From Escherichia coli (lineage in GTDB: Bacteria; Pseudomonadota; Gammaproteobacteria; Enterobacterales; Enterobacteriaceae), in the NCBI RefSeq assembly GCF_003334335.1, contig NZ_QOWQ01000218.1: 332 nucleotides of DNA; one strand, 5' to 3'. A program made the translations under genes and the position numbers. The notes under the pieces are model-generated. The model saw only the letters and a list, made by a program, of their open reading frames with translations. It searched no databases and was not told where the DNA came from. Shown in pieces: positions 1 through 332 of this stretch. How positions within the stretch are numbered: the first letter of the stretch is position 1; the number at the start of each line of letters is the position of its first letter.

Positions 1-332
1 GAAGAGCACGCCATTGTCCAGGTGGAAGAAATGCAGGCGGTGAATGCCGTGCTGTATGGCAAATACACCATGGAAGGAGACCAGTTCGAGAAAATTGAGG
101 TTGATTTTGGCAGATCGACGAAGAATAACATCATACAGGGTAGCGGTAAGGAGTGGTCAAAACAGGACCGTGACACGTTCGACCCGACATATGATATCGA
201 CCTTTTCTGTGATCAGGCCAGCGGTCTTGTGAATATTGCCATCATGGACGGTACCGTCTGGCGTCTGCTGAATGGCTTTAAGCTGTTCCGCGAAAAACTG
301 GATACCCGTCGCGGCTCAAATTCACAACTCGA
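1..332 (+). CDS. Phage major capsid protein, lambda gpE-like (Phage_cap_E family); internal fragment, truncated at both ends by the window
   Basis: Seen in sequence: frame +1 is open across all 110 complete codons with no stop. Third codon positions are mostly G/C and Leu is mainly CTG, as in enterobacterial coding DNA. Established knowledge: the translation aligns without gaps to the middle portion of lambda gpE as I recall it, with matching blocks QVEEMQAV, GKYTM, EWSK, DP, ASG, VNI and a near-identical EKLDTRRGSNS(E/Q)L block at the C-terminal end of the window. Inference: the full gene should extend several hundred bp beyond both window edges. The gene symbol is left blank because this is a homolog, not lambda E itself. 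Confidence 0.9.

Follow-up and report, generated by a model that had tools for sequence, protein, structure and literature searches.

The window, a stretch of 332 nucleotides of Escherichia coli DNA, is, with a probability of about 96%, the central third of the major capsid gene of a temperate lambdoid E. coli phage of the phage 21 type (residues 119-228 of the 342 encoded). No observation speaks against this reading, and none of the assessable defining features of the gpE family proved absent. The feature is already known, and the window is an ordinary piece of a capsid gene. This fragment of a lambda E homolog occupies the window from position 1 to 332 on the plus strand, and comprises codons 119-228 and the two initial bases of codon 229. 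No second function is carried by the window DNA and no embedded system is supported.

Identity of the capsid gene and its relatives

Frame +1 of the window is free of stop codons over positions 1-330 and is the sole fully open frame, all the others containing stops, while bases 331-332 are the start of the codon for Glu229 in the full protein. Upon megablast comparison with phage records, the window showed 100% identity to Escherichia phage PhiR5_1 (PV340545.1, 32222-32553; positions 8001-8332 of locus L001 in our set), within a CDS (7647-8675) annotated as "major capsid protein E". The matching phage records that bear an annotation, 20 of 20, are all labelled capsid protein. The 110-residue fragment matched the Pfam family Phage_cap_E (PF03864; i-E 4e-14; model positions 114-216 of 329) and three PHROG families, 2353, 6020, and 29, all described as "major head protein", at values from 1e-54 to 1e-37 (1.4e-54 for PHROG 2353). 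The full 342-residue protein of PhiR5_1 could be aligned along residues 1-341 with residues 1-340 of the solved structure of lambda gpE (7VI9; E=5.3e-134), and also matches a second solved lambda gpE (7SJ5) and a prophage capsid protein (3BQW).

The order of genes in PhiR5_1, a phage deposited with E. coli C named as its host, is Nu1-A-W-B-C/Nu3-D-E-FI-FII-Z-U-V-G-T-H-M-L-K as read from its annotation, and within 8 kb on each side of the window only canonical genes of the lysis end, the head, and the tail are located. The order of the head module (C-Nu3, D, E, FI, and FII) is common to PhiR5_1, Gifsy-1, lambda, N15, phi80, Perceval, and PhiR12_2. The first-pass annotation had assigned every base of the window to a single, well-known phage structural gene of lambdoid type, and all parts of this assignment are borne out: the single gene by the open frame +1 and the complete identity to the PhiR5_1 capsid CDS, its structural nature by PF03864, PHROG 2353, and the end-to-end alignment with lambda gpE, and the lambdoid label by the canonical order from Nu1 through D-E-FI to K in the identical phage.

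Of 5426 complete E. coli genomes, 1567 (approximately 29%) were found to carry copies at least 80% identical to the window, at most five in any one genome. All of the sampled E. coli matches that cover the full window are annotated as major capsid protein. Out of the 2318 matching places in the complete genomes, six are located on plasmids and not on chromosomes; these are possibly phage-plasmids or misassigned replicons.

The same gene in the same synteny is represented by gene 7 (the major head protein) of phage 21 and by the corresponding genes of 4A7, ev017, D2, and PhiR5_1. Relatives of the phage 21 type are 92.8-93.1% identical in nucleotide sequence, whether the window or the entire gene is compared, and their proteins are equal in length (342 residues). 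When the comparison was made with the window, phage 21, 4A7, ev017, D2, 1W, and 3W showed 92.5-93.1% identity, and the PhiR12 phages 87%. The differences between the genes of the phage 21 type and that of the window are allelic only, and the chief one is a mosaic patch of approximately 140 bp, in which the phages of PhiR12 type carry an allele diverged by approximately 30%. The gpE homolog of the Salmonella prophage Gifsy-1 (STM2603) shares the length and the synteny and is 79.7% identical at the nucleotide level across the gene, but belongs to a different host genus. Lambda gpE (7VI9 and 7SJ5; PF03864) is a full-length homolog with approximately 61% amino acid identity to the protein of the window (approximately 65% nucleotide identity between lambda E and the window), and its gene is likewise flanked by the decoration gene D and by FI. 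The protein of the window is, however, one residue longer than lambda gpE, and its partner, as paired from the annotation, would be a decoration protein of the phage 21 type and not lambda D.

The capsid shell of lambda is built of gpE, a protein of the HK97 fold, and is stapled by trimers of the decoration protein gpD after expansion (PMC5701804); the gene E is essential in lambda (PMC10695390). The assembly of a T=7 shell and the requirement for plaque formation are known for lambda E (PMC10695390, PMC5701804). The window would be transcribed within the operon of late head and tail genes and be translated in frame +1, and the product, a homolog of lambda gpE, is predicted to be a subunit of the HK97 fold. 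The subunits would assemble on the scaffold (C/Nu3) into a procapsid shell, which should expand upon DNA packaging and then gain stability from decoration-protein (D/SHP) trimers.

Within this protein, we infer that the fragment probably encodes the P-domain spine helix together with the beginning of the A-domain. The assignment to these elements was made from the usual order of the HK97 elements, a strongly helical-looking invariant segment in the fragment (EE.AI.QVEE.QAV.AVL.GKYTM), and a long helix at residues 104-136 in a low-confidence AlphaFold2 model. The model, obtained with an alignment of 11 sequences, gave a mean pLDDT of 33.7 and a pTM of 0.29 and is unusable, and thus the fold assignment rests on the sequence homology to solved structures (7VI9). 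No residue-level domain boundaries of gpE were found in the accessible literature.

Two unusual loci were encountered among the related sequences. One is a defective prophage of E. coli LR-31 (NZ_AP027520.1, 2186817-2190497; L088 5647-9327) carrying a fusion of the capsid and tail-tip genes, in which capsid codons 1-137 (ending in AVNAVLY) are joined in frame to the tail-tip gene J (PNTALVGVQVD...) with deletion of everything between. The junction, at approximately 6056 of this locus, corresponds to position 56/57 of the window, and the resulting chimera of 1226 residues is labelled by PGAP simply as "phage tail tip protein". The other is the 254-kb jumbo-phage record of Aeromonas phage AP1 (MT713136.1), of which the last 9 kb or so includes two short pieces of lambdoid prophage DNA from E. 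coli that bear no annotation. The first piece is 245 bp of the 5' end of the capsid gene with 98.4% identity (L089 5000-5244; approximately 250152-250396 of the record), and the second, in the opposite orientation, covers 83 bp in the region of gene K with 96.4% identity (L089 8610-8692; approximately 253762-253844). These pieces are most likely an assembly chimera or contamination.

Selection on the capsid frame and the mosaic patch

The set for comparison consisted of 80 related viral-contig loci together with Gifsy-1, lambda, N15, phi80, Perceval, and PhiR12_2, and 54 distinct full-length genes were aligned by codon, the alignment being gapless in the window. Since 49 of these 54 genes are close relatives, the power of the analysis for weak constraint is modest. 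The variable columns in the window are distributed among the first, second, and third codon positions of frame +1 at a ratio of 16/11/60, and pairwise dN/dS in this frame is between 0.03 and 0.06 among close alleles and between 0.08 and 0.30 to distant ones; this pattern is characteristic of one protein-coding frame under purifying selection. The nonsynonymous diversity in the capsid frame is far lower than the synonymous diversity.

An overlapping functional element would lower synonymous variation. The synonymous diversity was 0.154 in the window versus 0.133 over the whole gene, and no synonymous trough was detected within the window, every stretch of 15 codons showing a value of at least 0.07. 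The lowest synonymous diversity of the gene is located in codons 1-85, upstream of the window (L001 7647-7900). Along this 5' quarter of the capsid gene the values are 0.02-0.11 versus the gene mean of 0.13, in particular at codons 1-15 and 36-50, and may reflect constraints on translation initiation or recent shared ancestry via recombination.

A mosaic patch generated by recombination was identified within the capsid CDS at approximately positions 78 to 215 of the window on the plus strand (around codons 144-190; L087 1932-2069). The alleles of PhiR12 type (L087, L080, and L081) are 97% identical to the window allele over codons 1-118 and 229-342, versus 86% in the window, and the differences cluster in the patch, where the identity is 70-72%. 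Gifsy-1 is roughly equidistant in the patch from the window allele (70% identity) and the PhiR12 allele (77%). The left breakpoint differs between lineages, being located at approximately 78 in L087, 111 in L078 and L075, and 132 in L079, indicating that several exchange events took place. In L087 the neighbouring D gene is 98.3% identical and the 3' end of C is 99.8% identical, and the tract is therefore local and does not represent a swap of the module. Within the patch dS is saturated (at least 1.75, or not computable), in comparison with 0.10-0.21 in the rest of the gene, and dN/dS is 0.04-0.07.

To judge from these alignments, the patch is an old, diverged allele that was imported by homologous recombination and kept under purifying selection, a segment of approximately 140 bp having been exchanged between diverged capsid alleles, and is the sole unusual aspect of the evolution of the window. 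It represents ordinary lambdoid mosaicism, a phenomenon that is well known in lambdoid phages (for example, PMC9836094 and PMC3945230). The patch could otherwise be a cassette exposed on the capsid surface and subject to diversifying or balancing selection, for instance for evasion of host systems that sense the capsid, rather than a neutral tract. Such a cassette would be in keeping with the concentration in the patch of most of the amino acid variation of the window (EKI/DTV, STK/SEG, IIQGSGKEWSKQ/IEQADGKKWSEQ, and Y/H), with the presence of at least three different left breakpoints, and with the near identity of the adjoining genes. The dN/dS value of 0.04-0.07 is, however, the same as in the remainder of the gene, with dS at saturation, and diversifying selection on the patch was rejected on this ground; furthermore, no link to defence was found by PADLOC or otherwise. 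A selected surface cassette is thus considered very unlikely. The same slight chance is given to the proposal that the patch is a cassette exchanged repeatedly, whose alternative alleles are maintained in lambdoid phage populations since they alter a capsid surface recognised by capsid-sensing immunity of the host, or adjust the fit to different decoration or scaffold partners. If this were true, the patch of approximately 140 bp would act as a minor module inside a capsid gene that is otherwise conserved.

The FI gene (L001 8728-9096), located directly on the 3' side of the capsid gene, is far more mosaic than the capsid gene itself. Only approximately 125 of its 369 nucleotides could be aligned, at 80-92% identity, in many relatives (L087, L078, L079, and L039 were compared), which suggests that a module boundary is located just 3' of the capsid gene.

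Overlapping reading frames, RNA structure, and cargo

The only complete alternative ORF of 20 or more codons in the window is located at positions 44 to 232 of the plus strand, in the +2 frame, and consists of 62 codons with an ATG start. It might represent a young, clade-specific overlapping gene within the capsid genes of the phage 21 type, given that the ATG and the open frame are retained in every one of the 49 distinct close relatives, which are 86-100% identical to the window in nucleotide sequence, and that a weak purine-rich stretch (GCAGGCGG) is located 3-10 nucleotides upstream of the ATG. Openness of this frame is, however, expected from the capsid sequence itself: upon synonymous resampling of the capsid codons it stayed free of stops in 75% of the cases, and a stop would arise from only five of 111 possible single synonymous changes, each of which yields ATA, GTA, or CTA. 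For each of the five alternative frames of the gene, the longest run free of stops likewise falls inside the distribution obtained by resampling. No synonymous dip accompanies the ORF, codons 131-190 showing instead the highest values of the window (0.14-0.26), and substitutions in the +2 peptide are almost as numerous as those in the nucleotide sequence, 30 of 62 residues being different in the most diverged close relative versus 12 of 63 residues in the capsid frame. In all five distant homologs, Gifsy-1, lambda, Perceval, N15, and phi80, the ORF is broken by loss of the start and by stop codons. In addition, the peptide gave no significant match to PHROG or PADLOC and its exact sequence is absent from a collection of 15 billion proteins. 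An overlapping gene at this position is hence regarded as extremely improbable, and the ORF at 44 to 232 is judged to be a non-functional by-product of the capsid frame.

The same degree of improbability applies to a cis-acting structured RNA, or an antisense small RNA, embedded in the capsid mRNA, although a part of the comparative analysis appeared to point to it. RNAalifold with 26 diverse sequences predicted 57 base pairs, among which 11 were changed on both sides, and upon shuffling within pairs the observed values were reached in none of 500 trials (0/500) for four of five measures. This control ignores phylogeny, and the reasoning is circular, as this very alignment had served to optimise the structure; the double changes, moreover, come mostly from four sequences of the lambda/N15 group that share one long branch, and the covariation term amounts to only -1.55 kcal/mol. 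When alignment columns were shuffled within classes of codon position and conservation, with re-optimisation of the structure every time, z-scores between -1.69 and +1.54 were obtained for the whole window and seven sub-windows of 120 nucleotides per strand. The best local consensus fold, at positions 1-120 of the plus strand, is that with z=-1.69; the consensus folds of the plus strand were equalled or bettered in 7-52% of the column shuffles, and the folds observed on the minus strand were worse than most of the shuffles. Twelve other overlapping segments of 330 nucleotides from the capsid gene gave 4-13 covarying pairs, 11-35 cells, and energies from -27.8 to -38.6, and the window, with 11 pairs, 28 cells, and -29.2, is in the middle of this range. 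The column shuffles with re-optimisation and the comparison with segments of the same gene together removed the signal of the within-pair shuffle. Folding of the single sequence was no more favourable than that of shuffled sequences, with minimum free energy z-scores of -0.83 for the plus strand and +1.03 for the minus strand, and the search of Rfam and of transcription signals described below did not support a structured RNA either.

The search of Rfam at a permissive E-value yielded no match near any gathering score, the best being 16 bits versus a threshold of 55. This best match, to UnaL2 (a vertebrate LINE element), as well as the matches to ZFAT-AS1 and GlsR4, is eukaryotic and far below the threshold, and was rejected as a chance match. 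No tRNA or tmRNA was detected in the window by ARAGORN, and no terminator-like site was identified in the window. A single promoter-like site at 107-134 (TTGGCA-16-CATCAT) fits at 9 of 12 positions, but one such site versus 0.4 expected is not meaningful. Neither direct nor tandem repeats are present in the window, and the one inverted pair (47-62 and 236-251; 16 nucleotides, 75% complementary, with 173 nucleotides between the arms) is at the level of chance. No defence model of PADLOC (0 families) was matched by the capsid protein or by the +2 ORF, and a match of an antisense peptide to PycC (E=0.036, 11.4 bits) is again at chance level. The same holds for weak PHROG matches of alternative-frame peptides (E=0.26-0.46). 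Two antisense ORFs of 71 and 52 residues overlap the window, and their exact sequences are absent from the collection of 15 billion proteins.

These observations agree with the remaining claims of the first-pass annotation. It had stated that repeats, arrays, and intergenic DNA are absent, and a single gene extends throughout the window with one weak inverted pair as the only repeat; that neither strand shows independent structure, and both the single-sequence and the comparative tests were negative. It had further named two findings that would speak for an embedded element, a conserved, expressed overlapping gene and a structured RNA supported by covariation. The +2 ORF, with a null openness of 0.75, an unconstrained peptide, disruption in the five distant homologs, and a product that was never called as a protein, is not a conserved gene, and with all column-shuffle z-scores above -1.7 and pair counts in mid-range for the same gene, no RNA is supported by covariation. 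Its remark that cargo genes would be located near the tail-fibre, lysis, or integrase ends is general knowledge on lambdoid prophages. The window therefore stands, as that annotation had proposed, as wholly internal to a lambdoid capsid gene, with no novel system supportable within it.

Implications

The analysis gives a clean negative, so that the window can be closed and the effort moved to other parts of the prophage. Two traps are also illustrated: an alternative ORF conserved in 49 of 49 relatives was fully explainable by the amino acid sequence of its host gene, and controls of covariation that are blind to phylogeny gave an ordinary coding segment the appearance of structure. Recombination among the head genes of lambdoid phages is illustrated, in a small and ordinary way, by the mosaic patch.
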